In this document: positions 4,368 through 60,481 of the stretch, piece after piece | Numbering within the stretch: the first letter of the stretch is position 1 | Layout: every line of letters starts with the position of its first letter | NCBI GenBank assembly: GCA_016219285.1 | Contig: JACRNJ010000010.1 | Coordinates: 36,089 to 100,088 of the forward strand | From: Deltaproteobacteria bacterium | GTDB taxonomy: Bacteria; Desulfobacterota; GWC2-55-46; UBA9637 | DNA: 64,000 nt | Direction: 5' to 3' | Notes under the pieces: model-generated | What the model was told of the DNA's origin: nothing | Databases searched by the model: none | The model's input: the letters and a program-made list of their open reading frames with translations, nothing else | Made by a program: the position numbers and the translations under genes

Positions 4368-5729
4368 ATGTATCTTTTCTACGACATCCTTCTTCACATC
4401 TCTCTCTTAATGCTTGCGCCGTATTTCCTTTTTAAGATGGCCTTTGCCGGGAAATATCGCAAGGGGGTTCTTGAAAGGTTTGGTTTTATAGGCGAAGAGA
4501 AACTTAAGAATCTTTACGACAAGAAAGTAGTTTGGTTTCATGCGGTTTCTGTTGGAGAGACAAAGGCGAGTATGCTGCTGCTGAAACATTTTAAAGAAAA
4601 ATATCCAGACGCAAAAATTATATTTTCCACTGTTACGGCAACCGGCAATGCAATTGCAATGAAGCAGGGGGCGCAATGGATTGACAGCCTTATCTATTTT
4701 CCATTTGACTTTCATTGGGTTGTTAACAGTGTTGTGAAAAGAATAAAACCAAAAGTTTTTATAGTAGTGGAGAAAGAGATATGGCCGAATATCCTCAAAG
4801 TCCTGAAAAAAAGCAATATTCCTGCATTGGTTATAAACGGAACCATATCTGACCGCTCCTTTAAGCGGTATAAAATGTTTGGATTTTTCTTTAAAAGGAT
4901 ATTCGGCAATATATCATGTTTTTTGTGCCAAACAAAAATGGACGGTGATAAGGCAATAGCCCTTGGAATAGAGCCTTCGAGGGTTATTGCTACAGGCAAT
5001 ATAAAATTTGATATAGAGTCTGCTCAGTGGAGCCCTTCTGAAAGGGATGTTGTTATGCGAGGGCTTAATATAACAGGCTATGATGATATCATTATTGCAG
5101 GAAGCACCCATGCAGGCGAGGAGGAGATTGTACTGGATGTTTTTAAAAGACTTAAGCAGGAGGTTTCAAATTTAAGAGTGATAATTGCGCCAAGACACCC
5201 GGAAAGGTTTAATGAGGTGGAAAGGCTTATAAAGGGAATGGGGTTTTCTATTACAAGAAGGTCTGTGATAAGAAGTCAGAAGCAAGAAGCAAGAAGCAAG
5301 AAGCAAGAAGCCCAAAAAAGTCTTGCCTCTTACCTCTTACCTATTGTCTCTCATCCGAAATCAGAAGTCATCCTTTTGGATACCATTGGCGAGCTTTGTA
5401 ATTTTTACAGTATTGCAACAATTGCCTTTGTTGGCGGCACCCTTGTAGATATCGGCGGGCATAATCTACTTGAGCCTGCCTTTTATAAGAAGCCTGTAAT
5501 TTACGGTAATTACCTTAAAGGCTATACTGGAATGGCAAATATGCTTGAAACAGCCGGCGGCGGCATACGAATAAAAAATGGAGAGGAATTTTTTGAGAAG
5601 GCGAAACAGCTGCTCATGGATGATGTATATAGCCAGAAGGTTGGCAGTGCGGCTTACAGCGTGGTTCTTGCCAACAAAGGCGCAACAGATAAATGTCTGA
5701 AGATTTTGGAAGGGTTATTTGGGGAATGA
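4368..5729 (+). CDS. waaA: 3-deoxy-D-manno-octulosonic acid (Kdo) transferase
   Basis: 453 aa. N-terminal membrane anchor, WFHAVSVGE motif, GT30-like C-terminal half. Lipid A/Kdo context. Confidence 0.9.
   Translation: MYLFYDILLHISLLMLAPYFLFKMAFAGKYRKGVLERFGFIGEEKLKNLYDKKVVWFHAVSVGETKASMLLLKHFKEKYPDAKIIFSTVTATGNAIAMKQGAQWIDSLIYFPFDFHWVVNSVVKRIKPKVFIVVEKEIWPNILKVLKKSNIPALVINGTISDRSFKRYKMFGFFFKRIFGNISCFLCQTKMDGDKAIALGIEPSRVIATGNIKFDIESAQWSPSERDVVMRGLNITGYDDIIIAGSTHAGEEEIVLDVFKRLKQEVSNLRVIIAPRHPERFNEVERLIKGMGFSITRRSVIRSQKQEARSKKQEAQKSLASYLLPIVSHPKSEVILLDTIGELCNFYSIATIAFVGGTLVDIGGHNLLEPAFYKKPVIYGNYLKGYTGMANMLETAGGGIRIKNGEEFFEKAKQLLMDDVYSQKVGSAAYSVVLANKGATDKCLKILEGLFGE
5272..5350. repeat. In-frame heptamer-array hairpin inside waaA
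   Basis: (AGCAAGA)x4 at 5281-5308, with imperfect complement tcttgcctcttacctcttacc at 5321-5341. Translated as RSQKQEARSKKQEAQKSLASYLLPIV. Confidence 0.7.
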
Positions 5730-5877: not shown

Positions 5878-6478
5878 ATGAGGATGGGAATGCAAACAAC
5901 TATTTCGCAGGTTGATTACAAAAAACAGTATACTTACGCTGATTACTTTGCCATCAACGATGACAAGAGATATGAGGTTATGGAGGGGCGTATTATGATG
6001 GTTCCTGCGCCAAATACCTTTCATCAGAGGATTTCCTCGGAAATAGGATATCTTTTCGTTAAATATGTAAAAGGAAACGACCTTGGGTCTGTTTTTCTTG
6101 CCCCGACTGATGTGGTTTTGAGCGATGACGTGGTTGTTCAGCCGGACATCCTGTTTATAAGCAAGGAAAAGGCCGGGATTATAGGGGAGCAAGCCATAAT
6201 GGGGGGCCCCGGACATTGTTGTCGAGATTATCTCTCCATCGTCGTCGTTTAATGATTCGGTAAGAAAGAGAGAGATTTATCAGAGGTTTGGCGTGAAAGA
6301 ATACTGGCTTGTCTTTCCGGAGGAGAAGGCCATAGAAATTATGTGTCTTGAGGCTTGTCCCCGCACGTCTGAAGCGGGGAACGGCATTTACAGGGAGCTT
6401 TGCTCGGCAAAAGAGCAAGGAACCGTAAGGTCTAAATTCCTTCAGGGGCTTGAGGTTGAGTTGAAAGGAGTGTTTTAG
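5878..6478 (+). pseudogene. Uma2-family (DUF820) endonuclease, frameshifted in a G6C4 run
   Basis: The first ORF carries YEVMEGRIMMVPAP...HQRI...QPDILFISK. After ggggggcccc (6201-6210) the expected continuation APDIVVEIISPSSSFNDSVRKREIYQRFGVKEYWLVFP is in another frame. Removing one G restores it. Confidence 0.75.
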
Positions 6479-7254: not shown

Positions 7255-8049
7255 ATGAAAACTGTGAAAAGATGGTTGAAACCAATTTTCTGCTTCGCAA
7301 TGCTCGTGCTGGTAGCTTCATGCGGCGCCAAAATTTACATACCCAACATAAACTCGATGGGAAACATGAGCGTCAAAGAGGCACGCAAGGTGCTTGCTAC
7401 AGAGTTACCAGAGAATGCGGAGGTGTTTGTTGATGGTCGTAGCTATCATTTAACGGGCGTGAGTGTGGCACCAACTACGTTAATTATATTGAACGAAAGT
7501 GGCAAAAATCGTGTTTTTAAAATCGGTGAGCTTGACCAAATCACCCATACATACGCATTTGGAATTCCTGACAAATACACCATCTCCTTAAAAAACGAAT
7601 TAATATTCATAACTCAATGTAAGGTTCCGTATACGGCTAATACGAATATTCCTATCGCCCTTTACGTGCTCAAGCAGAACGCAATAAAGGCGGAAAAAGA
7701 TGCTGACGAAGAACATGCCCGCTTTTCGGCATCAATAGCAGACTATCGCAAAAAGGCAGCGTCAAACGCTGCGATTCCTGAAGAGGCAAATAGATACAAG
7801 GTGCAGGCAGAGGGTGCAGTGCGCGACAAGGAGTTCTACGATGCGGCTGACTTTTATGCCGAGGCACTGAAAATAGTCCCGTGGTGGTCCGTCGGGCACT
7901 TCAACAGGGCGCTGGTGCTTGGCGAGACCGGCGAATACGAAGAGGCCATTCGCGAGATGAAGCATTACCTGCAACTCGTGCCAGACGCCCCTAACGTCCG
8001 CGCGGCGCAAGATAAGATATACGACTGGGAGAGGTTAGAGGCAAAATAG
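7255..8049 (+). CDS. Lipoprotein with unknown N-terminal domain and a conserved ~90-aa TPR-like C-terminal module (paralogue 1)
   Basis: ATG 7255 after aaggagaa. Lipobox LVASCG. The C-terminus EEANRYKVQAEGA...VPWWSVGHFNRALVLGE...MKHYLQLVPDAPNVRAAQDKIYDWE is shared with the proteins ending at 9015 and 11359. Confidence 0.75.
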   Translation: MKTVKRWLKPIFCFAMLVLVASCGAKIYIPNINSMGNMSVKEARKVLATELPENAEVFVDGRSYHLTGVSVAPTTLIILNESGKNRVFKIGELDQITHTYAFGIPDKYTISLKNELIFITQCKVPYTANTNIPIALYVLKQNAIKAEKDADEEHARFSASIADYRKKAASNAAIPEEANRYKVQAEGAVRDKEFYDAADFYAEALKIVPWWSVGHFNRALVLGETGEYEEAIREMKHYLQLVPDAPNVRAAQDKIYDWERLEAK

Positions 8050-8107: not shown

Positions 8108-9015
8108 ATGATTAAGGCATTACGCAGGGCAATGTTTTTGTGCATATCAACGATTGCTGTTGTCTATCTTTCAGGGTGTGCGACTGTTAGCCCGCTTCAT
8201 GAAGCAGCAAAGAGTGGTAGCCTTGCCGAAGTAGAAAGGCTTATCAAAGAGGGCGCGGATGTGAATGCGAAGAATGAATCTGCCAGGACCCCGCTGCATA
8301 TGGCGACAAGTAAAGACATAGCTGAACTGCTCATTGCCAAAGGTGCGGACGTGCATGCGAGGAATGACATTGCCGGAACGCCGCTGTATCAGGCGACAAG
8401 TAAAGACATAACTGAACTGCTCATTGCCAAAGGTGCGAACGTGAATGAAAAGGACAGAGATCACTGGACCCCCCTGCATTCTGCAGCAATGAATGGCAAA
8501 AAGGAAGTCGCAGAGTTTCTTATAGTCAAAGGCTCGGACGTGAATGCGAGGAACATATACGGCTATACGCCTTCGGACTTGGCGGCAAGTGAAGGCCAAA
8601 CAGAAGTAGCAAGTTTTTTAAAAGATGTTATGACCGGGAAGGTGAAAGTAGCTGTTCCCTCGCCTCCTGAAGACCCGAAGGAAGCAGCCGCCTTTGAGGC
8701 AGAGGCAAAAAATGCCTTGCATTGGCAGTTAAACCGACGCTGCCGGAAGAGGCGCGTAATTATAAGGTGCGGGCAGTGGCCGCGATTAAGGATAAACAAT
8801 TCGACAAGGCCGCCGAGCTTTACGCAAACGCATCGAAGGCGGCCACGTGTTGGCCCGAGGGTCACTTCAACAGGGCGCTCATATTGGGCGAGTTGAACCG
8901 CTTCGCAGAGGCCCAACGCGAGATGAAGCGTTACCTGCAACTCGTGACAGACGCACCGAACGCCCGTGCGGCGCAGGATAAGATTTACGAGTGGGAGCGG
9001 TTTACATCCAAGTAG
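8108..9015 (+). pseudogene. Ankyrin-repeat lipoprotein with the same C-terminal TPR-like module (paralogue 2), frameshifted at an A6 run
   Basis: Lipobox LSGCA. About four ANK repeats (TPLH..A....ELLIAKGADVN). After the A6 run at 8707-8712 the conserved module (AVKPTLPEEARNYKV...DKIYEWE) continues in the -1 frame. A seventh A would restore one ORF. Confidence 0.75.
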
Positions 9016-10611: not shown

Positions 10612-11359
10612 TTGCTTCTCTTTGCCACGGCTCTACTCTTCGCCGGGTGCGCTACGCCACTCATGCGCGCTACAGAGAGAGGCGACATAAAAGAGATGGA
10701 GAGGCTAATAGCCGCAGGCGTGGATGTTAATCGCGAGGGACAGAATACCGAATTTGGTGGGGCAACAGGGTTTACGGCGTTAGGGAAAGCCTTGGAGAAA
10801 GGGCATGTTGAGGCCGCCCGTCTCCTCATTGAAAAGGGCGCTGACGTGAATGCAAAGAAAGGAACTCGCTGTGCTTCTCATTTCCAAAGGCGCGGACGTA
10901 AATATGCAGGATTACTACGGCCATACCCCGTTATATTATGCTAAAAAACGTGGTCACACCTCCATTGTCAGTCTCCTTGAAAAGGCAAAGACTATAAGTG
11001 CCGTGACAGACCCAAGCAGCCCCGCTGAAGAGGCGGCATTTACAGAGGCAGCACGAAGCTACCGTGCAGCTACAGTCAAACCAACATTGCCTGAGGAAGC
11101 TCGCAAATTCAAGGTTCAGGCGGAGTTTGCCTTCAGTAAAAAAGAGTTTGCTAACGCGGCTGAACGCTATAAAAAGGCTCTGGACATGGCCCCGTGGTGG
11201 CCTGAGGGACGCTTTAACCGCGCCCTCATCCTCGGCGAGCTATCCCGCTATGGCGATGCGATCAGGGAAATGAAGAGGTATCTGACGCTCGTCCCCGATG
11301 CGCCCAATGCCCGCGCCGCACAGGATAAGATATACCAGTGGGAAGGCGAGCTGAAATAG
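10612..11359 (+). pseudogene. Ankyrin-repeat lipoprotein with the C-terminal TPR-like module (paralogue 3), disrupted inside the ANK array
   Basis: TTG start, lipobox FAGCA. The frame changes near 10850-10860. The junction DVNAK/KELAVLLISKGADVN lacks most of one ANK repeat, which suggests a repeat-to-repeat deletion that is not a multiple of 3. The C-terminal module is intact in the second frame. Confidence 0.65.
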
Positions 11360-14540: not shown

Positions 14541-14580
14541 GTAGAATCGTTGGGTTTCGCGCTGCGGAGCCGCAACCTAC
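14541..14580. repeat. GTAG...CTAC REP-like element (single unit)
   Basis: gtagaatcgttgggtttcgcgctgcggagccgcaacctac. GTAG at the 5' end, CTAC at the 3' end, imperfect internal palindrome. Confidence 0.5.
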
Positions 14581-14797
14581 CCCTCCCACCGCAAAAAGCA
14601 AGCATTCAGCAGGGTGTATGCCTGCGCGTCTGTAAACAAATTTTCCTCATAAAGACAATTCAATCATTCAGCCGTTATGCTGCTTCTATACGCCCGGATA
14701 AAACCGGCCAATACTCTCCTGTTGCATTGACAAGAGATGGTATGCTATAAAAATACAGTGAGTAGGTTGGGTTTGCTGACAAATAATGCCATCTTGA

Positions 14798-15112
14798 ATG
14801 AAGACACCTGTTGACATACTGAAACAATTATCTTTAGGAGAGTTTGACTTTACCAGACATGCCTTTAAACGAACGATTGAACGGAATATCAGCGAGATTG
14901 AGATAAGAGAAGCCGGTGAAAAAGCGGAGTGTATTGAAGATTATCCTGATGATAAATATTCGCCGAGCTGCCTGCTTTTGGGTTTTACAAAATCCGGGAG
15001 ACCATTGCATGTACAGGCGTCATACGCTGATACGGAATTGGTAAAAATCATTACGCTCTATGAGCCTGACGAAACTGAGTGGACTGATAACTATTCAAGA
15101 AGGAGGATGTAG
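14798..15112 (+). CDS. DUF4258-domain putative toxin
   Basis: 104 aa. The FTRHAFKRTIERNIS...DYPDDKYSPSCLLLGFT..GRPLHV pattern is typical of DUF4258. Followed 2 nt later by a YgiT-type zinc-finger gene. Confidence 0.7.
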   Translation: MKTPVDILKQLSLGEFDFTRHAFKRTIERNISEIEIREAGEKAECIEDYPDDKYSPSCLLLGFTKSGRPLHVQASYADTELVKIITLYEPDETEWTDNYSRRRM

Positions 15113-15114
15113 CC

Positions 15115-15360
15115 ATGTTTAAATGTCATGTATGTAATTCAGCGGAATTCAGAGAAGATGTTGTTGATGAAATTTTTGATATTGAAGGCAAGCATGTTTT
15201 GGTTGAACAAATTCCTGCAAAGGTTTGCGGAAGATGCGGCGAGATGACCTTTAGCCGTGAAACAACGGAAAGAATCAGACGTTTGCTTCATGGAGAAGGG
15301 AAGACAAAGAAAACTATAACCATTGATGTTTTTGCTTATGAAACATCAATGGGCTTTTAG
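15115..15360 (+). CDS. YgiT-type zinc-finger (MqsA-like N-terminal domain) putative antitoxin
   Basis: 81 aa. CxxC...CxxC (CHVCNS ... CGRCGE) with the family-typical spacing. Confidence 0.7.
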   Translation: MFKCHVCNSAEFREDVVDEIFDIEGKHVLVEQIPAKVCGRCGEMTFSRETTERIRRLLHGEGKTKKTITIDVFAYETSMGF

Positions 15361-15363
15361 ACG

Positions 15364-15400
15364 GTTGAGTTGGTTTTTCAACCCAACGGTTTATTTAAAG
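15364..15400 (+). terminator. Possible terminator hairpin after the toxin-antitoxin pair
   Basis: gttgagttg-gttttt-caacccaac (8 of 9 pairs) followed by a T-rich tract. Confidence 0.4.
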
Positions 15401-15445
15401 TAATTATAGCCTGAAGGCAAAAGATAAAAGGGAGACTTTAACCAC

Positions 15446-18184
15446 ATGATAGGCACAACGTTAAAAAAGATATTCGGAAGCAAAAATGAGAGGGAACTGA
15501 AAAAGATTCAGCCCATCGTTGAAAAAATCAACAGCCTTGAACCTGATATGCAGAAGCGGGCGGATGCTGAATTGGCGGCGTTTACGCCGAAATTCAAGGA
15601 GCGGCTTAAAAACGGCGAAACATTGGACGATATTTTGCCTGAGGCATTTGCCGTTGTGAGAGAAATGTCAAAGCGGAAACTCAATATGAGGCACTTTGAT
15701 GTCCAACTCATGGGCGGGATTGTTCTGCATCAGGGAAAGATTTCAGAGATGAAAACCGGCGAGGGAAAAACCCTTGTGGCAACATTGCTGCTTTATCTGA
15801 ATGCGCTGGAGAGCAAAGGCTGTCATCTTATTACGGTGAATGATTATCTGGCAAAAAGGGACACGCAGTGGATGGGGCCGCTCTATCACAGCCTCGGTTT
15901 GTCTGTCGGAGTCATACAGCACGATGCTTCTTTTCTCTATGACCCGGCTTATTCGCCAAAGGATGAACGGCTCTTTCATCTGAGGCCGTGCAGCCGCAGA
16001 GAGGCGTATCAGGCAGATATTACCTACGGCACAAACAATGAATATGGTTTTGATTATCTCAGGGATAATATGAAGTTCTCCCTTGAAGAGTATGTTCAGA
16101 GGGAGCTTAATTTTGCGATAGTTGACGAGGTGGACTCTATCCTCATAGATGAGGCAAGGACGCCGCTTATCATATCAGGCCCTGCAGAGGAATCAACGGA
16201 TAAATATTATACCATTGACAGGATAATTCCCGGACTTGCAAAAGATACACATTTTACAGTTGATGAAAAGGCAAGACAGGTTATTCTGACCGAAGAAGGG
16301 GTTGAAAAGGTTGAGCGGCTTTTGAATATAGAAAACCTCTATGACCCGCGCCAGATTGAGACACTGCATCATGTAAATCAGGGTTTGAGGGCGCATGTGC
16401 TCTTTCACCTGGATGTTGACTATGTTGTGAAGGATGACCAGGTTATTATCGTGGATGAGTTCACCGGAAGGCTCATGCCGGGAAGACGTTGGAGCGACGG
16501 GCTTCATCAGGCAATTGAGGCAAAGGAAAAGGCAAAGATAGAAAACGAAAACCAAACCCTTGCAACGATTACATTCCAGAACTATTTCAGGATGTATAAA
16601 AAACTTGCAGGCATGACAGGGACAGCAGACACAGAGGCGGCCGAGTTTCATTCAATTTATAAACTTGAAGTGATGATTATGCCTCCCAACAAGCCAATGA
16701 GGAGAGATGACAACCCTGATTTGATTTATAAGACTGAAAAGGAAAAGTTTAATGCAGTTATAAGAGAAATAGAGGAGTGGAGTGAAAAAGGGAGGCCGGT
16801 ATTAGTCGGCACGATTTCCATAGAAAAGTCTGAAAGGCTTGCCACTCTTCTGTCAAAACGCGGCGTCAAACATCATGTTCTAAATGCAAAGCACCATGAA
16901 AAAGAGGCGGAGATAATATCGCAGGCAGGCAGGGTCGGCGCTGTGACACTCTCAACCAATATGGCTGGAAGGGGAACAGATATTGTACTTGGCGGAAACC
17001 CTGAGTCAATGGCAGCGCAAAAGGCTGGAAAGGACGACACCACAGCGGAATATAAATCCGCGTTAGAGGTTGCTCGCAAGGTTTGCGAAGATGAGAAAAA
17101 GCAGGTTATTGATTTGGGCGGTCTGCATATCATAGGCACGGAGCGGCACGAGTCGCGCAGAATAGACAACCAGCTTCGCGGGCGCGCAGGGAGGCAGGGA
17201 GATCCTGGTTCGTCAAGGTTTTATCTGTCTATGGAAGATGACCTGCTGCGCATATTTGGTTCTGACAGGATTTCTTCCATCATGGACAGACTTGGCATGG
17301 AAGAGGATGTTCCTATTGAGCATGGCCTTGTCAGCAAGGCAATAGAAAATGCCCAGAAAAAAGTAGAGGCCCATAACTTTGATATAAGGAAGCACCTCCT
17401 TGAATATGATGATGTAATGAATCAACAGAGGGTGGTTGTCTATAAATATAGACGGCAGATCCTTGCGCAGGAAGGCCTGAAAGACATGGTAGCCGATTTT
17501 ATTGACGATATGGCTGAGGAGACTGGATTTACATACGTTGATGAAAAGACACACCCTGATGAGTGGGATACTAAGGCAATAAAGGATGCTGTTTACAAAC
17601 AGTTTGATGCGCAGCTTGATGATAAGCTGTTTGAGGAGATCCAATCACGGGATGCCTTGATAGGCCTTATTTCGGATGAGGCAAAGAAGACATATCAGGA
17701 AAAGCTAGGAGCAATAGGCGCAGAGTCATTTAAGCATCTTGAAAAGATTGTAATGCTTCATACATTGGACACACTTTGGAAAGACCATCTTCTTGCAATG
17801 GACCATTTGAAAGAAGGCATAGGGCTTCGCGGTTACGGCCAGAAAAATCCTTTGCAGGAATATAAAAAAGAAGGGTTTGATCTTTTTCAAGACATGATAT
17901 TCAGGCTGAAGCAAGAGGTATGCGAGAGATTGTTTAAGGTTCAGATTGCGCGGGAAGAACAAGTCTCAACCCTTGAGCCGGTAAAAAGGCCGCAGAGTTT
18001 TGTGTTGAGCAGAGGGGAAGAAAATCAGTGGCAAAGGCCTGCCCCTGCAGGCTTTAAGCAGGGGGCAATGGACAAGGGGCAGGAAGAAAAGCCAAAACCC
18101 GTGCATGTTGCGGAAAAAGTCGGCAGGAATGAACCATGTCCGTGCGGGAGCGGGAAGAAATATAAGAAGTGCTGTGGAAAGTGA
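15446..18184 (+). CDS. secA: Preprotein translocase ATPase SecA
   Basis: 912 aa. MKTGEGKT Walker [21 protein letters not shown]-terminal zinc finger [15 protein letters not shown]. Confidence 0.97.
18036..18066 (+). repeat. PAGFKQG hairpin element, copy a (in frame in secA)
   Basis: ggcctgcccctgcaggctttaagcagggggc. Identical over 31 nt to the sense strand of the copy at 57089-57119. Confidence 0.85.
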
Positions 18185-18191
18185 TAACAAG

Positions 18192-19517
18192 ATGATGAAA
18201 CGGAGAAGCGGAGATAGGGAGAATCGGAGAAAGGGAAAGTCTTTATTCCCCGCTTCCCCGCTTTCCCGCTTCTCCGGTTCACGGTTTTCTGTCCCCGGTT
18301 TTAAAGCTGCCGGTATTGCCTGTGGCATCAAGCATGTCCCCGCAGGCTTTAAGCAGGGAAAGAACGGCAATAAAGACCTTGCCATGATATATTCGGAGTC
18401 GGCTGCTGTTGCAGCAGCCGTGTTTACAAAAAATAAAGTAAAGGCAGCGCCTGTCTTGCTTGATATGCAGAGGCTCAAAAAAGGTTTGTGTCAGGCAATA
18501 ATTATAAACAGCGGAAATGCAAATGCCTGCACAGGCAAAAAAGGCATGGAAGATGCGGCGCGGATGGCTGCGACAGTTGAAGATGTGCTTGGAATAAAAA
18601 AGGGTTTTGTCATGGTTGCGTCAACAGGCGTTATTGGACAGAATCTTCCGATTGACAAGATAGAAAAGGGGATCTCAAAACTTGTTTCGTCTCTTTCAGC
18701 AAAAGGGTGGAATGATGCGGTTCATGCCATTATGACCACAGATGCCTTTCCTAAAGCTGTGTTTGAAAAATGCAGGCTCGGCGGAAAAGAGATTTCTGTT
18801 TTAGGCATTGCCAAAGGCGCGGGCATGATATGCCCGGACATGGCTACTATGCTGGCGTTTCTGGCAACTGATGCTGCAATAGAACAAAAGACTTTGCAAG
18901 CGATGTTGAAGTTATCGGTTGATAATTCGTTTAACTGCATTACTGTTGACGGAGATACATCTACGAATGATACTGTGCTGATACTTGCAAATGGAAAGGC
19001 CGGGAATAAAGAAGTCAGGAGCCAGAAGTCAGGAGTCAGGAGTAAAGACTATAAAACCTTTTCTGAGATGTTGGAAAGAGCCTGTTTGAAACTTGCAAAG
19101 ATGGTTGTCATGGACGGCGAAGGCTCGACAAAGCTGTTGAAGCTTCATGTGAGCGGCGCAAAGACAGATAGTGACGCAAAAAAGATTGCTGAGACTGTTG
19201 CAAATTCGCCGCTTGTGAAGACGGCATTTTTCGGGGAAGACGCAAATTGGGGAAGGATTATGGCGGCAATAGGCCGTTCAGGCGCGGATATGAAACAAGA
19301 AAAGATTAATGTGTATTTCAATAATGTGCCTGTTGTAATGAAGGGGCAGGGGGCAGCATGCAAGGGGCAAGATAGAGAAAAGATGGCTGCAAAGGCTGTG
19401 AAGCAAAAAGAGGTTTGTATAAGGATTGAACTGGGTATGGGCAGGGGGATTGCAACTGTCTGGGCAAGCGATCTGTCGTATGAATATGTTAGGATAAATG
19501 CAGCGTACAGAACGTAG
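18192..19517 (+). CDS. argJ: Bifunctional ornithine acetyltransferase / N-acetylglutamate synthase
   Basis: VPGFKAAGIACGIK near the N-terminus, autoprocessing-region ATMLAF/TDA pattern, C-terminal SYEYVRINAAYRT. Start placed at ATG 18192, because the ORF-track start at 18105 overlaps secA and is unlikely. Confidence 0.9.
   Translation: MMKRRSGDRENRRKGKSLFPASPLSRFSGSRFSVPGFKAAGIACGIKHVPAGFKQGKNGNKDLAMIYSESAAVAAAVFTKNKVKAAPVLLDMQRLKKGLCQAIIINSGNANACTGKKGMEDAARMAATVEDVLGIKKGFVMVASTGVIGQNLPIDKIEKGISKLVSSLSAKGWNDAVHAIMTTDAFPKAVFEKCRLGGKEISVLGIAKGAGMICPDMATMLAFLATDAAIEQKTLQAMLKLSVDNSFNCITVDGDTSTNDTVLILANGKAGNKEVRSQKSGVRSKDYKTFSEMLERACLKLAKMVVMDGEGSTKLLKLHVSGAKTDSDAKKIAETVANSPLVKTAFFGEDANWGRIMAAIGRSGADMKQEKINVYFNNVPVVMKGQGAACKGQDREKMAAKAVKQKEVCIRIELGMGRGIATVWASDLSYEYVRINAAYRT
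18201..18276. repeat. Inverted purine/pyrimidine-rich array hairpin at the argJ 5' end
   Basis: cggagaagcggagatagggagaatcggagaaagggaaag ... ttccccgcttccccgctttcccgcttctccg. A related arm occurs at about 50905-50935. Confidence 0.65.
18330..18359 (+). repeat. PAGFKQG hairpin element, copy b (in frame in argJ)
   Basis: aagcatgtccccgcaggctttaagcaggga. Differs at two positions from the sense strand of the lysA copy. Confidence 0.85.
19012..19045. repeat. GTCAGGA-type heptamer array inside argJ
   Basis: aagtcaggagccagaagtcaggagtcaggagtaa, translated EVRSQKSGVRSK. No obvious complementary arm nearby. Confidence 0.6.
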
Positions 19518-19566
19518 TTGCCCATTTATGGGTGTGTTTAAGAACGCCGATAAATCGGCAGGCTGC
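19514..19566 (+). repeat. GTAG...CTRC REPIN-like doublet
   Basis: GTAG-ttgcccatttatgggt ... cgccgataaatcggcagg-CTGC. The GTAG overlaps the argJ stop codon. Confidence 0.75.
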
Positions 19567-19580
19567 AAACCGGAGGTTTT

Positions 19581-20006: not shown

Positions 20007-20079
20007 GTAGCTGCCGATTCATCGGCGTTTTCAAAAGCGCCCATGGGGCGCTCAACAGAAGGTTGGGTCGGGCAACTAC
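20007..20079 (-). repeat. GTAG...CTAC three-module REPIN-like element (inverse orientation relative to 34979-35055)
   Basis: GTAG-ctgccgattcatcggc-...-gcgcccatggggcgc-tcaacagaaggttgggtcgggcaa-CTAC. It is the reverse complement of the 34979-35055 element with a few substitutions. Confidence 0.8.
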
Positions 20080-20087
20080 AGCTAAAA

Positions 20088-20864
20088 ATGACAAATAGCC
20101 TGATGTATATCTTCAGCTTTATCTTCGGCTCTATTGTTGGCAGTTTCTTGAATGTCTGCATTTATCGTATTCCAGAAGACAAATCAATTATATTCCCTCC
20201 ATCATCATGTCCAAATTGCAATAAGCAAATTGCCTTCTACGATAATATTCCAATTATAAGCTATATTATTCTTCTAGGCAGATGCCGCAATTGTAAAAAT
20301 CCAATCTCACAGCGCTATCCTTTGGTAGAATTTTTAACAGGTTTTTTTTCCGTGATATTATTTAAGGCATTTGGTCTTTCAATAGAGATCCCAATCTACT
20401 TTGTCTTTGTATCAAGCCTCATTGTAATAACCTTTATAGACCTGCGATATCAGATAATACCGGATGTGATAACTCTTCCCGGCATTGCCGTTGGTTTTTT
20501 AGCTTCGTATTTTTTGCCGTACGGCATATTAAATTCCATGATTGGCATATTGGTTGGCGGCGGAAGCCTCTTGCTCGTGGCAGCTGGTTATCAACTTGTT
20601 ACAGGCAGAGAGGGTATGGGCGGTGGAGATATAAAAATGCTCGCAATGATAGGCGCATTTCTGGGATGGAAGGGTGTTATCATAACCATATTTACAGGCT
20701 CCTTTATCGGCGCTGTTGTCGGTTCTGCATTGATGCTGGCAAAAGGCAAGGATACTAAATATGCCATACCTTTTGGCCCTTTTCTTGCCGTTGGCGCAGT
20801 GGTCTCTCTTTTTTTTGGAGATGCTATTATAGATTGGTACATAATGGGTATATGGATGCGCTAA
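20088..20864 (+). CDS. pilD: Prepilin peptidase / N-methyltransferase (A24 family)
   Basis: Zinc-binding CPNC...CRNC pairs, catalytic-region GGGDIKML motif, multiple TM segments. Start moved to ATG 20088 because 20043-20087 is repeat sequence. Confidence 0.9.
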   Translation: MTNSLMYIFSFIFGSIVGSFLNVCIYRIPEDKSIIFPPSSCPNCNKQIAFYDNIPIISYIILLGRCRNCKNPISQRYPLVEFLTGFFSVILFKAFGLSIEIPIYFVFVSSLIVITFIDLRYQIIPDVITLPGIAVGFLASYFLPYGILNSMIGILVGGGSLLLVAAGYQLVTGREGMGGGDIKMLAMIGAFLGWKGVIITIFTGSFIGAVVGSALMLAKGKDTKYAIPFGPFLAVGAVVSLFFGDAIIDWYIMGIWMR

Positions 20865-20876: not shown

Positions 20877-20905
20877 GGCCTGTCCCTGCAGACTTTAAGC
20901 AAGGG
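20877..20905 (+). repeat. PAGFKQG hairpin element, copy c (intergenic)
   Basis: ggcctgtccctgcagactttaagcaaggg, embedded between gtcaggg and gtcagga heptamers. Confidence 0.75.
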
Positions 20906-20967: not shown

Positions 20968-21480
20968 ATGAAATATGAAAAGGGATTTTCATTGATAGAG
21001 TTGCTTATAACCATTGCCATATTAGCCACATTATCGGCAATAGCGATATTATACATTCCTGATATGATGGATGGTTACAAGGTAAGAGGTGCTGGAAGAC
21101 TTGTTTATTCAGATATGCAGATGGCGAGATTAAGGGCAATAAAAGAAGGGAAGCAGTGGGCAGTGGAGTTTACAAGCGCAAGCGCCACGACCTATTGTGT
21201 TAAAAGTGAGGTTAATACAACCAACAATGCAATGGATGGTTTCAGCACAGGTTGCGCCACACCTAATGATACTATCGTTAAGACAGTAGATATCAATAAT
21301 GAGCATTCCGGAGTTACAGGCGATTCATCAAATGTCAGCAGCAACAGGGTAGAATTTAATCCTAATGGCACGGCGACAAGCGGCAGGATAATAATTTCCA
21401 AGGGGTCAAGGACACAATCACTCTGTCTTAATAGCAGCACTGGCAACATAAGGATTGTTAATGCATCAACCTGTTCATAA
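20968..21480 (+). CDS. fimT: GspH/FimT-family minor (pseudo)pilin
   Basis: Type IV prepilin N-terminus KG/FSLIELLITIAIL. GspH/FimT-like pattern downstream (RLVYSDMQMARLRAI). Confidence 0.7.
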   Translation: MKYEKGFSLIELLITIAILATLSAIAILYIPDMMDGYKVRGAGRLVYSDMQMARLRAIKEGKQWAVEFTSASATTYCVKSEVNTTNNAMDGFSTGCATPNDTIVKTVDINNEHSGVTGDSSNVSSNRVEFNPNGTATSGRIIISKGSRTQSLCLNSSTGNIRIVNASTCS

Positions 21481-21984: not shown

Positions 21985-22066
21985 AAATGCAAAAATGAAA
22001 AATGAAAAATTAAAAATTAAAAATAAAAATTTGCAATCTAAAATTTGCAATTTGCAATTTGCAATT
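21985..22066. repeat. A-rich and ATTTGCA heptamer tandem arrays at the pilW 5' end
   Basis: aaaatgcaaaaatgaaaaatgaaaaattaaaaattaaaaat ... aatttgcaatttgcaatttgcaatt. Encodes the unusually long PilW leader. Confidence 0.6.
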
Positions 22067-28653: not shown

Positions 28654-28678
28654 CTGGGTCAGGGGTCAGACTTACTTA
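28654..28678 (-). repeat. Inverted copy of the 26-nt RAYT-flanking repeat
   Basis: ctgggtcaggggtcagacttactta is the reverse complement (23 of 25) of the unit repeated at 29652-29729. Confidence 0.8.
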
Positions 28679-28713
28679 TTGACAATATTATTGTCTTTTG
28701 TTACTTTGCTCTT

Positions 28714-29658: not shown

Positions 29659-29729
29659 GTCTGACCCCTGCCCCACCTAAGTAAGTCTGACCCCTGCCCC
29701 ACCTAAGTAAGTCTGACCCCTGCCCCACC
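29652..29729 (+). repeat. Tandem 26-nt repeat x3 (taagtaagtctgacccctgccccacc)
   Basis: Three perfect head-to-tail copies. The first overlaps the RAYT stop codon. Confidence 0.95.
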
Positions 29730-29869
29730 TTGGGGTTCTTTACAGCCGTAAGGGGTTTATGGATAAGGCAATTAATGCATTCTCTGAGGCATTACGGATT
29801 AAACCTTACGACACTGAGGCTCAGGAAGGTTTGAAAAAGGCATTGTATTTCAAACAGATCCAGAGGTAG
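29729..29869 (+). pseudogene. 3' remnant of a TPR-protein gene (TMTC-like paralogue?)
   Basis: Open frame LGVLYSRKGFMDKAINAFSEALRIKPYDTEAQEGLKKALYFKQIQR* with no 5' part. Resembles the C-terminus of the next gene (YARKGLFEEAIKNYANALKIAPDD). Confidence 0.55.
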
Positions 29870-35055: not shown

Positions 35056-35135
35056 AAATTTATGTCGCCGACTATATTTTGAATTGAAGGCAATAGGGAA
35101 GGAGCCGTAGGGCGGCCCCTTCCCTATCCATTTGA

Positions 35136-36392: not shown

Positions 36393-36424
36393 TATAAAAG
36401 AAGGAGGTGAAATAATTATTTTCA

Positions 36425-41715: not shown

Positions 41716-43006
41716 AAAAAATATTCAAGGTAGTTGCCGATTTATCGGCGTTTTTAAACCTGTCCCCGCAGGCTTTAAGCGTGGATACGCCCATAAATGG
41801 GCAGCTACAATTTTATTTGCATGTTTTAGCCTTTTAATATTCTCAAAGGCCATAGCATTTGCCGCAGACAAGGATGCTTACGGCACTGCCTCTTTAATGG
41901 TGATTGTTGAAAGAGAGGCAGGAAGTGTGATTGTTATTGATTCTTCAAGGCATAAATTATTAGGCCGGATTTCGAATCTTGGCAATCTCATACATGCTAC
42001 CGTCAAGTTTTCAAAGGATGCAAGGTTCGCCTATGTGATAGGCAGGGATGCATCCGTAAGCAAGATAGACCTGTTGAAATTAAAACTTGTGAAAAAGGTG
42101 AGGGCAGGGGATGACTCTGTAGGCGGCGTAATGACTCAGGACGGCAAATATGTCGCCCTAAGCAACTATGTGCCGGGCGAGGTCAGAATACTTGATGCGG
42201 AGACATTGGAAACAGTAAAGATAATTCCGGCAGAGAGAGAGTATCCTGACGGCAAAAAAATAGCGGCAAGGGTTGTCGGCCTGGTGGATGCGCCTGGAAA
42301 TCTCCTTGTATTTTCAATGATGGATAATGACGGAATATGGGTTGTAGATGCAGGCAAAAAGGATTTTCCAGTAACAAAGAAATTCTGGGATATTGGCGAA
42401 ACTCCCTATGACGGGCTTATAACCCCTGACGGCAGATATTATATCTCAGGCCTTTTAAACTCCAATTGGGTTGGACTTCTGGATATTTGGGATATGACAG
42501 AGGTTAAAAGGATTTCAACTATAAAGACGAAAGATGCGAGGGGGACAGGAGAAGATATTGTCCCTTTGTGGAAGATACCGCATCTAAAAGGATGGGCTAT
42601 TGCAGGCGATTACGCAGTGATTCCTGCTATTAAGAGAGAGGTGGCATTGGTTTACAATATAAGGGATTGGAGCATAATAAAGGAAGTGCCTCTGGTTGGC
42701 ACTGCGCTCTATACAGTTGCAGGCCCTGATGGAAGATATGTGTGGGTTGATTTGGTCGGAAAGAACGGAGACACAATTCAGGTTATAGACCTTAAAACCC
42801 TTGAGGTTGTAAAAACCTTTTCGCCGGGTAAAGGCGCAACCCATCCCCAGTTTACGCCAAAAGGCGATGCGGTTTATATATCGTTGATGGATGAATACAA
42901 GGTGGTGGTTTATAATCCGGTTACTTTTGAAAAGATAACAGAATTTCCGGCGGAAAAACCGTCAGGCATATTTTCAACAGAAAGGGCGCATAAGTTTGGC
43001 ATGTAA
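41699..43006 (+). CDS. nirF: NirF-like cd1 beta-propeller protein without heme c
   Basis: 435 aa. Signal-like segment AATILFACFSLLIFSKAIAFA, propeller homologous to the NirS/NirN d1 domains, no CxxCH. The N-terminal ~35 residues are encoded by a composite repeat element. Confidence 0.7.
   Translation: MQKLYKKNIQGSCRFIGVFKPVPAGFKRGYAHKWAATILFACFSLLIFSKAIAFAADKDAYGTASLMVIVEREAGSVIVIDSSRHKLLGRISNLGNLIHATVKFSKDARFAYVIGRDASVSKIDLLKLKLVKKVRAGDDSVGGVMTQDGKYVALSNYVPGEVRILDAETLETVKIIPAEREYPDGKKIAARVVGLVDAPGNLLVFSMMDNDGIWVVDAGKKDFPVTKKFWDIGETPYDGLITPDGRYYISGLLNSNWVGLLDIWDMTEVKRISTIKTKDARGTGEDIVPLWKIPHLKGWAIAGDYAVIPAIKREVALVYNIRDWSIIKEVPLVGTALYTVAGPDGRYVWVDLVGKNGDTIQVIDLKTLEVVKTFSPGKGATHPQFTPKGDAVYISLMDEYKVVVYNPVTFEKITEFPAEKPSGIFSTERAHKFGM
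41730..41808 (+). repeat. GTAG...CTAC composite element carrying a PAGFK hairpin module, inside the nirF 5' coding region
   Basis: GTAG-ttgccgatttatcggc-gtttttaaa-cctgtccccgcaggctttaagcgtgga-tacgcccataaatgggcag-CTAC. Confidence 0.8.
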
Positions 43007-43969: not shown

Positions 43970-44050
43970 GTAGCTTGCCCATCCCCGCTAAAAATCTGCG
44001 GGAACATGTTTATGGGCATATTTAAAAGCGCCGATAAATCGGCCGACTAC
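43970..44050 (+). repeat. GTAG...CTAC doublet whose first hairpin loop is interrupted by a PAGFK-type hairpin (antisense)
   Basis: GTAG-cttgcccat[ccccgctaaaaatctgcgggaacatg]tttatgggc...gccgataaatcggccga-CTAC. Confidence 0.75.
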
Positions 44051-56160: not shown

Positions 56161-58176
56161 TATGGTTGGATCAGGAATAAATGCTGGCCGCCACTCATTG
56201 ATTTCCAGATGGCGGCGGATTTCCTGCTCAAATCCTTCTGGTATATCGTAATATGTCCTGATAAAGAGATTTATATCAGCAGGCAACGGTTCTTTTTTAC
56301 CCGCGCAAAGCTCTATATAGTTTTTTAATTTTATTTTCCTGCCTTCTGTCGTGTCGTTAGGCCTGATACAGAGTTTAGCTGCAAGAGGCAGGGCTTGCTC
56401 AATAGTTTCAGCAAAACATAAAAGGTGTTGCGGCGCAGGGCCTGTTGGGACTATATCCCCGAGTCTCGTATCCTTTACCTGCCAGAGTCTATCCTGCCCG
56501 ATAAGGTGAATACCATAGTTTTTGAACATCGGCCCGAAGATAACAGGGATGCCGAGCCTTGCCATACCCAGCGCAGAAGAGAATGCCTTCTGCGTGAATG
56601 CGCCCCAGAGTATTACTACTGCGCCAACCCTGTTTATTATATAGTCTGCAATTTCTTTGTAATTATTCTCCGGTTTTCTGTGGCACATTATCTGGGCGAT
56701 TTTTATGCAGGCCCCGATAAGATGAGAAGCAGATACACATGAACCAAGATTTGTTAGGTTTCTGCTGTCAAAAGAGTCAGGATTGTCTTTGAACAAATCT
56801 CCTTTTGCAACATCCATTGAGGCACAGCCGCCAGTGGAAACAATATATCCCCTATTTAGAAATTCTCGGGCAAACATATTAGCAATTGAATCTTCTGGCT
56901 TCTGACTTCTGACTTCTGACTTCTGACTTGCCTCCGGACATCCAAATATCCCTACAATTCCGGGAATCTCACCCATCACAATAGACGGCGCAACTCCCCT
57001 TATTTCACCATCTCGTATAGGGCCGCGGCCAATCCGTAAAAAAGAGTTCGGGGTTCGGAGTTCGGAGTTCGGAGTTTTACTGCCTGCTGCCCCCTGCTTA
57101 AAGCCTGCAGGGGCAGGCCCCTGCCCACTGCCTACTAACTTCAATGCTGCCTCTGCTGCCTTTTTCTTATCCAGAATAATACCCGTCCCATTCTTCAAAA
57201 TATATTCTGACGACTTGTCCAACGGCATGTCCGTTAAATCTCTAAGTCCAAGCGCCGTCTCTTGTGTTGTTGCAATAAGCATACTATTAACCTTACCCGC
57301 CTCGGCAACCACATCCGGCCTTATGCACTGTGTGTCCATAATAACAACATCCGCAATGCCTGATTTAATAACATCCAATTGCATAGCCTGATTGCCTATT
57401 ACCTTAAAACCATGACTATGCCTCGCTGAATCTGATGCTGCACAGCACAGGCCGCAGACCTCCACCTTATCCTTAATACCTCTACTTTCAAGAAGGTGCA
57501 TAATTTCATGGGCAACAGATGAGTTGTGACCAATTATAAGTATTACAGGCTTTGATGTATCAACAGTTTCTAATCCGATAGCTATTATTGGCGAATTGGA
57601 TTCGCCCTTTGGCATGTTCATGGCAGATATCTGCGCAATGTCTGCCACTTCCATGGCAAGGTTATCCAGCATACCTGCATGAAGCGTCTTGCTTACAAAA
57701 TCATCAGGGGATGCCTCTGTGCCGAAGTTTATGGAGGAGAGGAGGTGATTTAACTGGCCTTCTATATAGGTAAGAATATTTCTCAACTCACCCATGTTTT
57801 TTGGCTTACAGCCTGTTATAAGCGTTGTGATTGGAGTTGCTATAGCGGTATGCAGGCCGGTATCTACACGACACTCTTTATCGAACCTGTCTATTAAGTT
57901 TTCTATAAGTCTTACAGCGTGAGATGTATGACCCGATGTTCCTATAACAGCATCTAATAAAATCTCTCTTGCCTTGAAACCAGTTTCATCAATGCCGCAT
58001 TTTCCAACCCCCCCTCCCCCCCCCTTTGTTAAATGGGGGGCAGGGGGGGTTGGCCTGCACGGCCCCATGGCACACAGGTGGCAGGCCTTATTAGACTTTG
58101 AAAATATTGGCAGGTATCTTTCAAGCAGGGTTAAATCCCAGTCTCTTAAATCAAATATATCTAAATATGGTTTCAT
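56155..58176 (-). CDS. Ni-CODH (CooS)-like protein, prismane/CODH family, carrying several repeat-derived in-frame inserts
   Basis: 673 aa. The following line up with CooS B- and C-cluster regions: C-x2-C-x4-C (CHLCAMGPCR) then KCG, GTSGHTSHA, IIGHNSS, CGLCCAA, MDTQCIRPD, GGCASMD, LGSCVSA. Enzyme specificity not established. Confidence 0.55.
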   Translation of the reverse strand: MKPYLDIFDLRDWDLTLLERYLPIFSKSNKACHLCAMGPCRPTPPAPHLTKGGGGGVGKCGIDETGFKAREILLDAVIGTSGHTSHAVRLIENLIDRFDKECRVDTGLHTAIATPITTLITGCKPKNMGELRNILTYIEGQLNHLLSSINFGTEASPDDFVSKTLHAGMLDNLAMEVADIAQISAMNMPKGESNSPIIAIGLETVDTSKPVILIIGHNSSVAHEIMHLLESRGIKDKVEVCGLCCAASDSARHSHGFKVIGNQAMQLDVIKSGIADVVIMDTQCIRPDVVAEAGKVNSMLIATTQETALGLRDLTDMPLDKSSEYILKNGTGIILDKKKAAEAALKLVGSGQGPAPAGFKQGAAGSKTPNSELRTPNSFLRIGRGPIRDGEIRGVAPSIVMGEIPGIVGIFGCPEASQKSEVRSQKPEDSIANMFAREFLNRGYIVSTGGCASMDVAKGDLFKDNPDSFDSRNLTNLGSCVSASHLIGACIKIAQIMCHRKPENNYKEIADYIINRVGAVVILWGAFTQKAFSSALGMARLGIPVIFGPMFKNYGIHLIGQDRLWQVKDTRLGDIVPTGPAPQHLLCFAETIEQALPLAAKLCIRPNDTTEGRKIKLKNYIELCAGKKEPLPADINLFIRTYYDIPEGFEQEIRRHLEINEWRPAFIPDPTIL
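56892..56930. repeat. (TTCTGAC)n heptamer array inside the CooS-like gene
   Basis: cttctgacttctgacttctgacttctgactt. Sense-strand translation SQKSEVRSQKPE. Confidence 0.8.
57044..57078. repeat. (GTTCGGR)n heptamer array inside the CooS-like gene
   Basis: gagttcggggttcggagttcggagttcggagtttt. Sense translation KTPNSELRTPNS. Confidence 0.8.
57089..57119 (-). repeat. PAGFKQG hairpin element, copy e (in frame in the CooS-like gene)
   Basis: The reverse complement is ggcctgcccctgcaggctttaagcagggggc, identical to the secA copy. Confidence 0.85.
58004..58053. repeat. C-run/G-run hairpin in frame in the CooS-like gene
   Basis: ccaaccccccctccccccccctttgttaaatggggggcagggggggttgg. Sense translation PTPPAPHLTKGGGGGVG, located between the CxxCxxxxC motif and the next Cys. 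Confidence 0.7.
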
Positions 58177-59200: not shown

Positions 59201-60481
59201 CTAACTTTTTGCCAGATCCTCTCCCTTTATCAAATCCTTATAAGACTCCCTTTCTCTTATTACAGAGAATTTGTTCCCCTTTACCATAACCTCAGCAGCC
59301 CTCGGTCTTGAGTTATAGTTGCTGGACATGGAAAAACCATAGGCTCCTGCGCTCATTATGGCCATCAAATCGCCTGATTTAAAGTAGAGAAGCTCCCTAT
59401 CCTTCGCAAAGAAATCTCCGGATTCACATATAGGGCCTACCACATCGGCGGTAATCTCTCCCTGCTTAAAATCTGCGGGGACATGCTTGCCGGAATTTTT
59501 CCCGACCGCCTTTATTGCATGATAAGAACCGTAAAGGCTCGGCCTTGCAAGGTCGTTCATGGCAGCGTCAACAATGATAAAATTCTTCTCGGTGCCCTGT
59601 TTTGTGTATAACACCTTTGTAACTAATATACCGGCATTCCCCACCATGACCCTGCCCGGCTCAAATATCAGCGTCACACCCAAGCGCTTTGTCGCATCAA
59701 TCACCGCCTTGCCGTATTTGCTCGGATGCGGCGCATTCTCGTCCTTGTAAGTTATACCAAGGCCGCCGCCCATATCCAGATATTTTACCTCAATCCCCTC
59801 ACTCCCAAGCGTTGTGATAATCTCTTTTGTCTTTTTGAGGGCGTCAATAAACGGAGAAAGCTGCGTAAGCTGTGAACCGATATGGCAGTCAACGCCGATA
59901 GGGGTAAGATTTTTCAGATTGTTTTTTGCATAAACGTATTCCTTAATAGCCTGCTCTGTCTCTATACCGAATTTATTTTTCTTGAGCCCGGTTGAAACAT
60001 ACGGGTGCGTCTTTGGGTCAACATTCGGATTTACCCGTATGGCAAAGCCGGCCTTTTTCTTCAGCCTGCCTGCGATTTTATTTATTGCCCGCAGCTCTTC
60101 AGGGGATTCAACATTGAACATGAGTATGCCGGCCTTCAAGGCATATTCAATTTCATCTTCCCTCTTTCCGACACCTGAATAGACTATCTTTTTAGGATTC
60201 GCCCCGGCCTTTAGCGACCTGAAAAGCTCTCCGCCTGAAACAATATCAACACCGCTCCCTGCTTTGATAAAGGTATTCAGCACTGAAATATTTGAATTCG
60301 CCTTTACAGAATAGCAGATAAGATGCGGCACGGTTTCAAATGCCTCATCAAAGGCCGCGTAATGCCGAGTCAGTGTCTTGTGACTGTAAATATAACACGG
60401 CGTTCCAACCTCTTTAGCGATTTTTTCTATGGATACGGCTTCGGCGTAGAATTTATTTTTCTTGTAGGTGAAAAAGTGCAT
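59201..60481 (-). CDS. lysA: Diaminopimelate decarboxylase
   Basis: 426 aa. PLP-lysine region CYSVKAN, GGGLGI, ICESGD motif. Confidence 0.93.
   Translation of the reverse strand: MHFFTYKKNKFYAEAVSIEKIAKEVGTPCYIYSHKTLTRHYAAFDEAFETVPHLICYSVKANSNISVLNTFIKAGSGVDIVSGGELFRSLKAGANPKKIVYSGVGKREDEIEYALKAGILMFNVESPEELRAINKIAGRLKKKAGFAIRVNPNVDPKTHPYVSTGLKKNKFGIETEQAIKEYVYAKNNLKNLTPIGVDCHIGSQLTQLSPFIDALKKTKEIITTLGSEGIEVKYLDMGGGLGITYKDENAPHPSKYGKAVIDATKRLGVTLIFEPGRVMVGNAGILVTKVLYTKQGTEKNFIIVDAAMNDLARPSLYGSYHAIKAVGKNSGKHVPADFKQGEITADVVGPICESGDFFAKDRELLYFKSGDLMAIMSAGAYGFSMSSNYNSRPRAAEVMVKGNKFSVIRERESYKDLIKGEDLAKS
59459..59488 (-). repeat. PAGFKQG hairpin element, copy f (in frame in lysA; reads KHVPADFKQG)
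   Basis: The reverse complement is aagcatgtccccgcagattttaagcaggga. Differs at two positions from the argJ copy. Confidence 0.85.

Follow-up and report, generated by a model that had tools for sequence, protein, structure and literature searches.

Why should one short DNA hairpin lie in frame, on the sense strand, and in the same phase in five unrelated genes? The question arises from a 64,000-nucleotide (nt) stretch of the genome of a Deltaproteobacteria bacterium (assembly GCA_016219285.1, contig JACRNJ010000010.1, positions 36,089 to 100,088 of the forward strand), which we will term the window. The window contains seven copies of one hairpin repeat. Five of them lie within genes, all sense, in frame, and translated as PAGFK(Q/R)G. 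The unit that was inserted measures 27 nt (CMTGYCCCYGCAGRYTTTAAGCRGGGR). Because close orthologues of the host genes lack exactly these 27 nt, or nine codons, the 27-mer is inserted DNA and not a protein motif. We think that it is probably a very small, non-autonomous mobile hairpin that resembles repetitive extragenic palindromic (REP) elements, and that its bias towards one phase is the work of filters on where copies land and persist.

The copies in the window, followed by one possible diverged copy, are as follows (sub-families A and B are told apart by the closing pair of the stem):

18038..18064, + strand: copy in SecA, sub-family B, whose 7-bp stem is perfect; occupies residues 865-873 of the C-terminal linker and reads PAPAGFKQG
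18333..18359, + strand: copy in ArgJ, sub-family A, with a C.A stem mismatch; follows the conserved GIK and is read as HVPAGFKQG
20879..20905, + strand: intergenic copy with one stem mismatch
41759..41785, + strand: copy at the N-terminus of a NirF-like cytochrome d1 protein, read as PVPAGFKRG and nested between GTAG-tagged REPs
43982..44008, − strand: degenerate intergenic copy that departs from the consensus at 2 positions and lies within a further REP composite
57091..57117, − strand: copy in a CooS-like/Prismane protein, sub-family B; forms residues 354-362 within a low-complexity linker and reads PAPAGFKQG
59459..59485, − strand: copy in LysA, sub-family A, with a C.A mismatch; residues 333-341, read as HVPADFKQG
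6351..6380, + strand: possible diverged copy that matches the reference at 77%, with its loop changed to ACGTCTGAA; its membership in the family is uncertain

The copies listed in the original prediction, which was made from the sequence alone, were all found where it had placed them, and its five translations match (KHVPAGFKQG in ArgJ, KPVPAGFKRG in the NirF-like protein, KHVPADFKQG in LysA, and likewise those in SecA and the CooS-like protein). It had described a hairpin element of 30 nt: the hairpin repeat is real, but the empty sites described below give a unit of 27 nt. A 23-mer (CCCCTGCAGGCTTTAAGCAGGGG), with up to three mismatches allowed, matches the window 4 times where 0.00 matches are expected, and a 17-mer core matches 10 times where 0.61 are expected. 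A repeat search of the window also recovers the 27-mer family. Complementarity is 91% over 35 nt between the argJ and lysA copies and 95% over 38 nt between the secA and CooS-like copies. A Pfam search supports the identities of all five host genes. The intergenic copy at 20879-20905 is preceded by a prepilin peptidase gene (20043-20864), whose stop codon is 15 nt away, and lies upstream of a gene for a GspH-like pilin (20968-21480). It has an orthologous counterpart in L081. The possible diverged copy lies in a Uma2-like endonuclease gene (5878-6478) that is split by a frameshift into open reading frames (ORFs) at 5878-6252 and 6293-6478. It is in the second of these, in what is normally a TAA-containing phase, and the altered loop removes the stop.

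The evidence for insertion comes from orthologues with empty sites. The closest orthologue of LysA (89% identity), which lies on a syntenic contig (L112, with lysA-ubiA-Prismane), is shorter by exactly 27 nt: GGC AAG [CAT GTC CCC GCA GAT TTT AAG CAG GGA] GAG ATT in the window corresponds to GCA AAA GAA ATT in L112, with the gap between the Lys and Glu codons. There is no insert at this site in 55 of the 60 closest LysA orthologues. For ArgJ, the 9 residues are missing from 40 of 40 orthologues examined, and an exact 27-nt empty site (atcaag^aagaac) is present in L097, L114, and L115. At the CooS-like site, the syntenic orthologue in L112 is short by 9 residues. The insert is thus missing at these three sites from orthologues with as much as 78-89% protein identity. 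There was no target-site duplication in any filled/empty pair for lysA or argJ (atcaag[27]aagaac versus atcaagaagaac and ggcaag[27]gagatt versus gcaaaagaaatt). These exact gaps bear out the view that the element is a DNA repeat and not a conserved protein motif. The prediction had also expected an alignment of orthologues to reveal an insertion of ten residues; the insertion is seen in LysA, ArgJ, and the CooS-like protein, but with nine residues. The insertions also differ in age, as L097 (86% nucleotide identity to window positions 14570-18684) has a filled site in secA and an empty one in argJ. In L113 the secA copy has decayed, and L115 has none.

The insertion sites show other changes as well. 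L113 has 6 nt (CAGGTA, at ~3080) at the exact ArgJ insertion site. They are similar to the final 6 nt of the 27-mer, and a deletion between its AAGCA direct repeats may have left them behind. In an ArgJ protein from L114 (P0124), a further copy, read as KPAPAGSKQGG, lies at a second loop, which in the window holds a heptamer-derived EVRSQKSGVRS. L113 has a nucleotidyltransferase/HepT pair between secA and argJ (2147-2960); in L114, where no secA was called, a HicAB pair (2487-2920) lies directly upstream of argJ; and in the window the spacer (18185-18290) is filled by a heptamer palindrome. This spacer turns over quickly, with different toxin-antitoxin pairs in relatives. At the insert loop of LysA, several orthologues (P0003, P0004, P0012, P0016, P0019, P0021, P0023, and P0025) carry another palindromic repeat, which is read as PPxPPFxKGGxGGF, LEKGGEGGF, or NPLTLILSPKGRGKDEG; the same family is found at the N-terminus of the ArgJ protein P0123 and in the secA-argJ interval of L097 (~6140-6200). 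Different repeats thus land time and again at the same permissive sites.

The consensus of the 27-mer is CMTG-YCCCYGC-AGRYTTTAA-GCRGGGR, that is, a 5' CMTG followed by a 7-bp G+C stem with a 9-nt loop. Across 84 distinct copies, 98% of the stem cells are paired, and two of the seven stem pairs covary (the outer pair, UA/CG, 50:30, and the fifth, CG/UA, 44:31), with a covariation score that was reached by none of 500 shuffles. In RNA folding, the perfect copies (secA and CooS-like) reach −12.8 kcal/mol and the copies with a C.A mismatch (argJ and lysA) reach −6.7 kcal/mol. In the kind of comparison with controls that the prediction had proposed, the Z-scores of single 27-mers are weak (−0.6 to −2.5).

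The target of insertion is rich in purines. Of 92 copies, 85 have A or G at position −3 and 85 have A or G at −2; T is never seen at −1, and a purine triplet occupies −3 to −1 in ~90% of copies. Sub-family A, with a T-A closing pair, usually follows AAA or AAG. Sub-family B, with a C-G closing pair, usually lies exactly between the units of a heptamer array (TCAGRRG^[27]^TCAGRRG). In these arrays, removing the 27 nt restores the 7-nt register, and the element is always at TCAGRRG^. There is no conserved tag at the 3' end of the 27-mer, and no T tract.

A scan for exact patterns with one genome per species found at least 111 loci, and the loci listed together with the window (~0.9 Mb) contain 103 copies with up to three mismatches, as compared to 0 in shuffled sequence. 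Several metagenome-assembled genomes (MAGs) of uncultured bacteria have many copies. Among them are MAGs labelled in the sequence records as 'Deltaproteobacteria' (several, from Rifle and Californian groundwater), Thermodesulfobacteriota, Nitrospinota, and Nitrospirae, and a Tara Oceans MAG. There was no copy in the viral contigs searched. In the window, Rfam gave only a tRNA above its gathering score and nothing that overlaps the 27-mers at E values up to 5, and a literature search for the sequence of the element and for its peptide found nothing relevant.

Most copies are solo and dispersed, and at most two are found 34-70 nt apart. Some are nested within other repeats. At 41730-41810 in the window, the 27-mer lies between two inverted GTAG-tagged REPs, and the same REP-27mer-REP composite is also found in an intergenic position in L002. 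The N-terminus of the NirF-like protein is made up of this composite, and its orthologue in L050 begins with MPKLDKKKLKNPAGFKRGYAHKW, which translates part of it. As the signal peptide has no other start codon ahead of it, the nirF copy is probably translated. The copy at 43982-44008 is also flanked by REPs. [quoted passage not shown]

The 20 host ORFs that we scanned against Pfam are all genuine genes, and they belong to unrelated families (~20). The sense hosts are a class II aminoacyl-tRNA synthetase, ProRS, RibD, DXS, adenylosuccinate lyase, an ABC ATPase with a TOBE domain, DNA methylases, a Zn-dehydrogenase, Cas6, AcrB, CheA, a CbiG-methylase fusion, and an acyl-CoA synthetase/acyltransferase. 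The antisense hosts are a heptosyltransferase and a UvrD-like helicase. Altogether, the element has entered ~25 real genes that are unrelated to one another. Most of the inserts are between Pfam domains, in linkers and loops. For example, the SecA insert is in a flexible linker that separates SecA_SW, whose last residue is 833, from the SEC-C zinc motif (894-912). In an AlphaFold model of LysA, the insert is in a low-confidence coil (328-341) between two strands, with a mean predicted local distance difference test score (pLDDT) of 53 for residues 331-340.

Four of the six phases of the element are free of stop codons, as had been stated and as direct reading of the sequence confirms. Among the matches listed, with crude gene calls (the longest ORFs) and with orthologous events collapsed by eye so that the counts are approximate, the PAGFK phase has ~20 independent internal insertions, xSPQALSG (the second sense phase) has ~5, antisense has ~3, and either stop-containing phase has 0. 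The xSPQALSG phase occurs in Pfam-verified genes (the CbiG-methylase fusion, AcrB, CheA, and the acyl-CoA synthetase/acyltransferase), and given the same crude gene calls, no gene at the loci examined is interrupted by a copy in a stop-containing phase. So, the claim that the element is always sense and always in the PAGFKQG phase is right for all five genes of the window, but other genomes have xSPQALSG and antisense copies. The tabulation by strand and phase that had been suggested, when carried out over many genomes, does have PAGFK as the commonest phase, but as a bias and not as a rule.

The excess of the PAGFK phase is significant when compared to four equal phases (P = 3e-7). The prediction put the chance of the pattern in the window at 1 in 256, but that figure presumes equal priors, and a purine-rich target (AAR^/RRG^) on purine-rich coding strands already favours sense copies (57-69%) and the PAGFK phase (30-43%). 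When the element is placed after AAR, RRR, or similar targets in the real genes of these loci, about 32-43% of placements are in the PAGFK phase and 57-69% are sense, and the excess still has P ~1e-5 to 3e-3. Simple target models (AAR^, RRR^, or purine runs) were therefore rejected as the full cause of the bias, as they account for only part of it. Most simply, the rest is probably due to tolerance of the peptide. It had been proposed that only this peptide is tolerated, and the excess does outlast the correction for target, but the explanation is partial. Insertion coupled to the direction of transcription or translation had also been proposed. However, between co-directional genes, as crudely called, 11 intergenic copies are co-oriented with the genes and 11 are opposed, which speaks against coupling to transcription or to replication. 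Copies within TCAGRRG arrays are a special case: they are forced to be sense because the complement of the array has TGA in every frame.

In the reading that we propose, new copies enter as an exact 27-nt block, with no duplication, directly 3' of AAR or RRG. As 27 nt is nine codons, the reading frame is never shifted. Copies in the two TAA-containing phases would truncate the protein and be lost, and the remaining copies would be translated as nine extra residues and persist in inter-domain linkers, surface loops, and termini. (We infer translation through the insert because no copies in stop phases are found within genes.) Three filters would then lead to the dominance of PAGFK(Q/R)G: the removal of the stop-containing phases; a purine-rich target, which is commoner on the purine-rich coding strand and is often an in-frame Lys codon; and, probably, better tolerance of a peptide rich in Pro and Gly. 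The relative weight of the three is something that we infer. By analogy with known systems, the 27-mer may be transferred as single-stranded DNA by a tyrosine (HUH/Y1) enzyme that resembles REP-associated tyrosine transposases (RAYTs) and acts in trans.

The window does encode a RAYT-like Y1 (IS200-type) transposase (28714-29658, + strand, 314 residues), in the region 28655-29730. The protein matches Pfam PF01797 (E = 3e-16) and scores 75.7 bits against the NCBIfam model for REP-associated tyrosine transposases, which has a cut-off of 80. The gene is bounded by 32-nt inverted repeats (TGGGTCAGGGGTCAGACTTACTTATTGACAAT) whose sequence is unlike the 27-mer, and the right terminus is present in three tandem 26-nt copies. 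Homologues are plentiful in MAGs of Nitrospirota, Thermodesulfovibrionia, and Syntrophales, and 23 of 25 homologue loci have flanking inverted repeats with GGGGTCAGRC or GGGTCAGRC at or next to the outer end, so this Y1 element is of the 'TIRYT' type, with terminal inverted repeats (TIRs). The sole hint of a link to the 27-mer is a 12-nt identity (GCAGGGGTCAGA) between the terminus of the Y1 element and the 3' arm and flank of sub-family B, which may reflect a shared G-rich heptamer context. (A tblastn search of all loci with sequences of E. coli RAYT, IS200 TnpA, and IS608 TnpA returned nothing relevant, but we discarded this negative because the search overlooked the window's own Y1 gene.)

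Several points weigh against a RAYT-mobilised hairpin whose phase is set by filters. The 80 metagenomic loci around Y1 homologues (352 kb) contain 0 copies of the 27-mer, and so a link between the two is not established. Clustering of the 743 proteins that adjoin copies gave no recurrent family other than common ones. A single hairpin without GTAG or CGTC tags is unlike the described substrates of RAYTs and unlike the two-hairpin ends of IS200/IS605 elements. The simple target models do not account for the whole of the PAGFK excess. Finally, the data themselves have limits: besides the crude gene calls and the collapsing by eye, taxon names are only the labels of the records, and decayed copies are under-sampled because loci were found by exact pattern. 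We nevertheless consider this reading to be the probable one.

In an alternative that we consider unlikely, the strand and phase bias is set not by selection but at the moment of insertion into single-stranded DNA, either the non-template strand of transcribed genes or the lagging-strand template at forks. IS200/IS605 elements behave in this way, and the top strand of the 27-mer would then end up on the coding strand. The lack of target duplication and the fixed 5' flanking target are as expected for HUH/Y1 elements, the genome has a Y1 transposase gene, and in the window the strand of the element, the strand of the genes, and the sign of the GC skew all change near 47 kb. But the even split of the intergenic copies, which is a proxy for the direction of both transcription and replication, argues against it, as do antisense intragenic copies in genes that are co-oriented with their neighbours (for example, in L030) and the failure of the 80 homologue loci to tie any enzyme to the 27-mer. 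(The change in the window is at ~47000-47350, where the GC skew changes sign and all genes go from the + to the − strand beside a tRNA gene at 47180-47253; the cumulative skew has its maximum there, as at a replication terminus or at the boundary of a large inversion.) It seems quite improbable that the hairpin is instead kept for the use of the host, as a binding or processing site in mRNA or DNA for some conserved protein or to pause translation, with its presence in genes being selected. The near-identity of loop and stem across MAGs labelled as different phyla, with compensatory changes in the stem, would fit such a role, as would the embedding of the core hairpin in three different repeat contexts. 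Yet the closest relatives do without the argJ, lysA, and CooS-like inserts and show no sign of compensation, the secA copy is decayed or missing in relatives, the host genes and positions are unrelated, and neither an Rfam match nor the T tract of a terminator is present. We had considered the divergence of orthologous copies (5%) relative to their flanks (28%) as evidence of conservation, and rejected it as circular, since it was an exact pattern match that had yielded the two members of every pair.

That PAGFKQG is a convergent or conserved protein motif, or that the repeat is an artefact of assembly or chance, is extremely improbable. ArgJ does have a native VPGFKAAG, 16 residues upstream of the insert, which resembles it, but copies are identical at the nucleotide level, including at synonymous sites, and the exact 27-nt gaps in orthologues refute a motif. 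Also, some copies are intergenic or antisense, chance would give 0 matches, and the element is present in independent assemblies from many studies. Other candidates were rejected too. The element is not a terminator (no T tract) or a CRISPR repeat (the copies are dispersed, with no regularly spaced arrays), and ribosomal bypass or splicing would leave stop-phase copies within genes, where, at the loci examined, there are none.

A more far-reaching version of the mobile-hairpin reading, which we offer only tentatively, is that the 21-nt core (CCCYGC-AGGCTTTAA-GCRGGG) is the recognition module of an unrecognised, cross-phylum system that mobilises single-stranded DNA, with the TIR-flanked RAYT-like Y1 transposases, which are abundant in these lineages, as a possible source of the enzyme, and that the 27-mer actively remodels the linkers of proteins in these bacteria. 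If so, it would be the smallest known 'coding-adapted' mobile element, with a length that is a multiple of three and stop-free sense frames; it would use RRR^ targets, and heptamer arrays would be its landing pads.

How does the 27-mer compare to known systems? REPs and Rickettsia palindromic elements (RPEs) have been described inside genes (PMC3733652; PMC10969869). The original prediction named RPEs as the precedent, and they are a fair functional analogue: they too are palindromic repeats found in frame in many unrelated housekeeping genes, translated as a conserved peptide, and compatible with folding (PMC10969869; PMC3733652). In contrast to the 27-mer, which is a single hairpin with no sequence relation to them, RPEs are ~100-150 bp and are confined to Rickettsia, whereas the hosts of the 27-mer are free-living anaerobe and groundwater lineages labelled as several phyla. 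With the REP/REPIN/RAYT system it shares its form (an imperfect, G+C-rich palindrome of 20-40 nt), its multiple copies, some of which are within ORFs, where they prefer linkers and termini, and its nesting (Di Nocera 2013, PMC3733652; Bertels and Rainey 2011, PMC3116915), and in both cases a tyrosine transposase is the suspected mobiliser. However, the 27-mer lacks the GTAG or CGTC tag (its 5' end is CMTG), and the tagged REPs near it are separate elements that host it. Unlike REPINs and REPtrons, it is mostly solo rather than in inverted doublets, and it is not found flanking this genome's RAYT-like gene or that gene's homologues. Also, it is near-identical across distant taxa, while REP families are usually lineage-specific.

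MITEs derived from DDE transposons, which have terminal inverted repeats and duplicate their target site, differ in that filled and empty sites of the 27-mer show no such duplication. IS200/IS605 elements are similar in that they insert 3' of a short conserved target, without duplication, and have a recognisable hairpin, but they have two distinct subterminal hairpins where the 27-mer has one. They also show an orientation bias that is linked to replication, and intergenic 27-mers are split 11:11, although this is an indirect test. Cyanobacterial small dispersed repeats (SDRs; Elhai et al. 2008) are reportedly ~21-27 nt, nest in one another, and are occasionally found in genes without disrupting them; they would differ from the 27-mer in sequence, hosts, and structure. 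Overall, the 27-mer makes up a family of its own, a new one within a known kind of selfish DNA, and acts like an intragenic REP or RPE.

The in-frame colonisation of essential genes, which is best known in Rickettsia, thus also takes place in free-living subsurface lineages, with an element of nine codons. The exact 27-nt filled and empty pairs are material for studying movement without duplication and the tolerance of proteins for nine-residue insertions. Such repeats also lengthen ORFs, give spurious N-terminal extensions, break assemblies, and add low-complexity segments, and thereby confuse the annotation of MAGs and homology searches.

The heptamer arrays in which sub-family B is found have a known counterpart. 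In Geobacter metallireducens, heptanucleotide arrays with the consensus MTYCTGA (TCAGRAK on the other strand) are both intergenic and intragenic (PMC2700814). Their unit is TCAGRRG, as in the arrays that flank sub-family B, but they correspond to the context in which the 27-mer lands and not to the hairpin itself. Tandem arrays of at least three heptanucleotide units, with many different unit sequences, occur at 21 sites in the window, which is unusually dense. They are found at the ends of genes, as inverted intergenic pairs, and in frame in kdtA, argJ, and the CooS-like gene (where they encode, for example, EVRSQKS). Examples are:

430-450/474-494: heptamer arrays
3444-3464: heptamer array
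5269-5310: heptamer array
19023-19043: heptamer array
21990-22024: heptamer array
36424-36451: heptamer array
40400-40427: heptamer array
41655-41682: heptamer array
50856-50883: heptamer array
56891-56925: heptamer array
57044-57071: heptamer array
61174-61201: heptamer array

Other repeats in the window are distinct from the 27-mer. The GTAG-tagged REPs form a separate family (GTAGTTGCCGATTTATCGGC and GCCCATAAATGGGCAGCTAC), with members at 19525-19567, 35014-35056, 41730-41810, 44009-44051, 53274-53316, 55093-55135, and 61225-61257. An 83-nt element with inverted termini (ACCCCGTTAGAAGCT...AGCTTCTAACGGGGT) is present in two copies (36307-36389 and 39871-39953) and looks like a MITE; the first copy directly follows a small ORF with an IS1595-type zinc ribbon (35917-36306). 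Lastly, a 99-nt coding segment recurs at the 3' ends of three neighbouring TPR/ankyrin genes (7938-8036, 8904-9002, and 11251-11349) with 67-86% identity, which indicates a duplicated C-terminal module.

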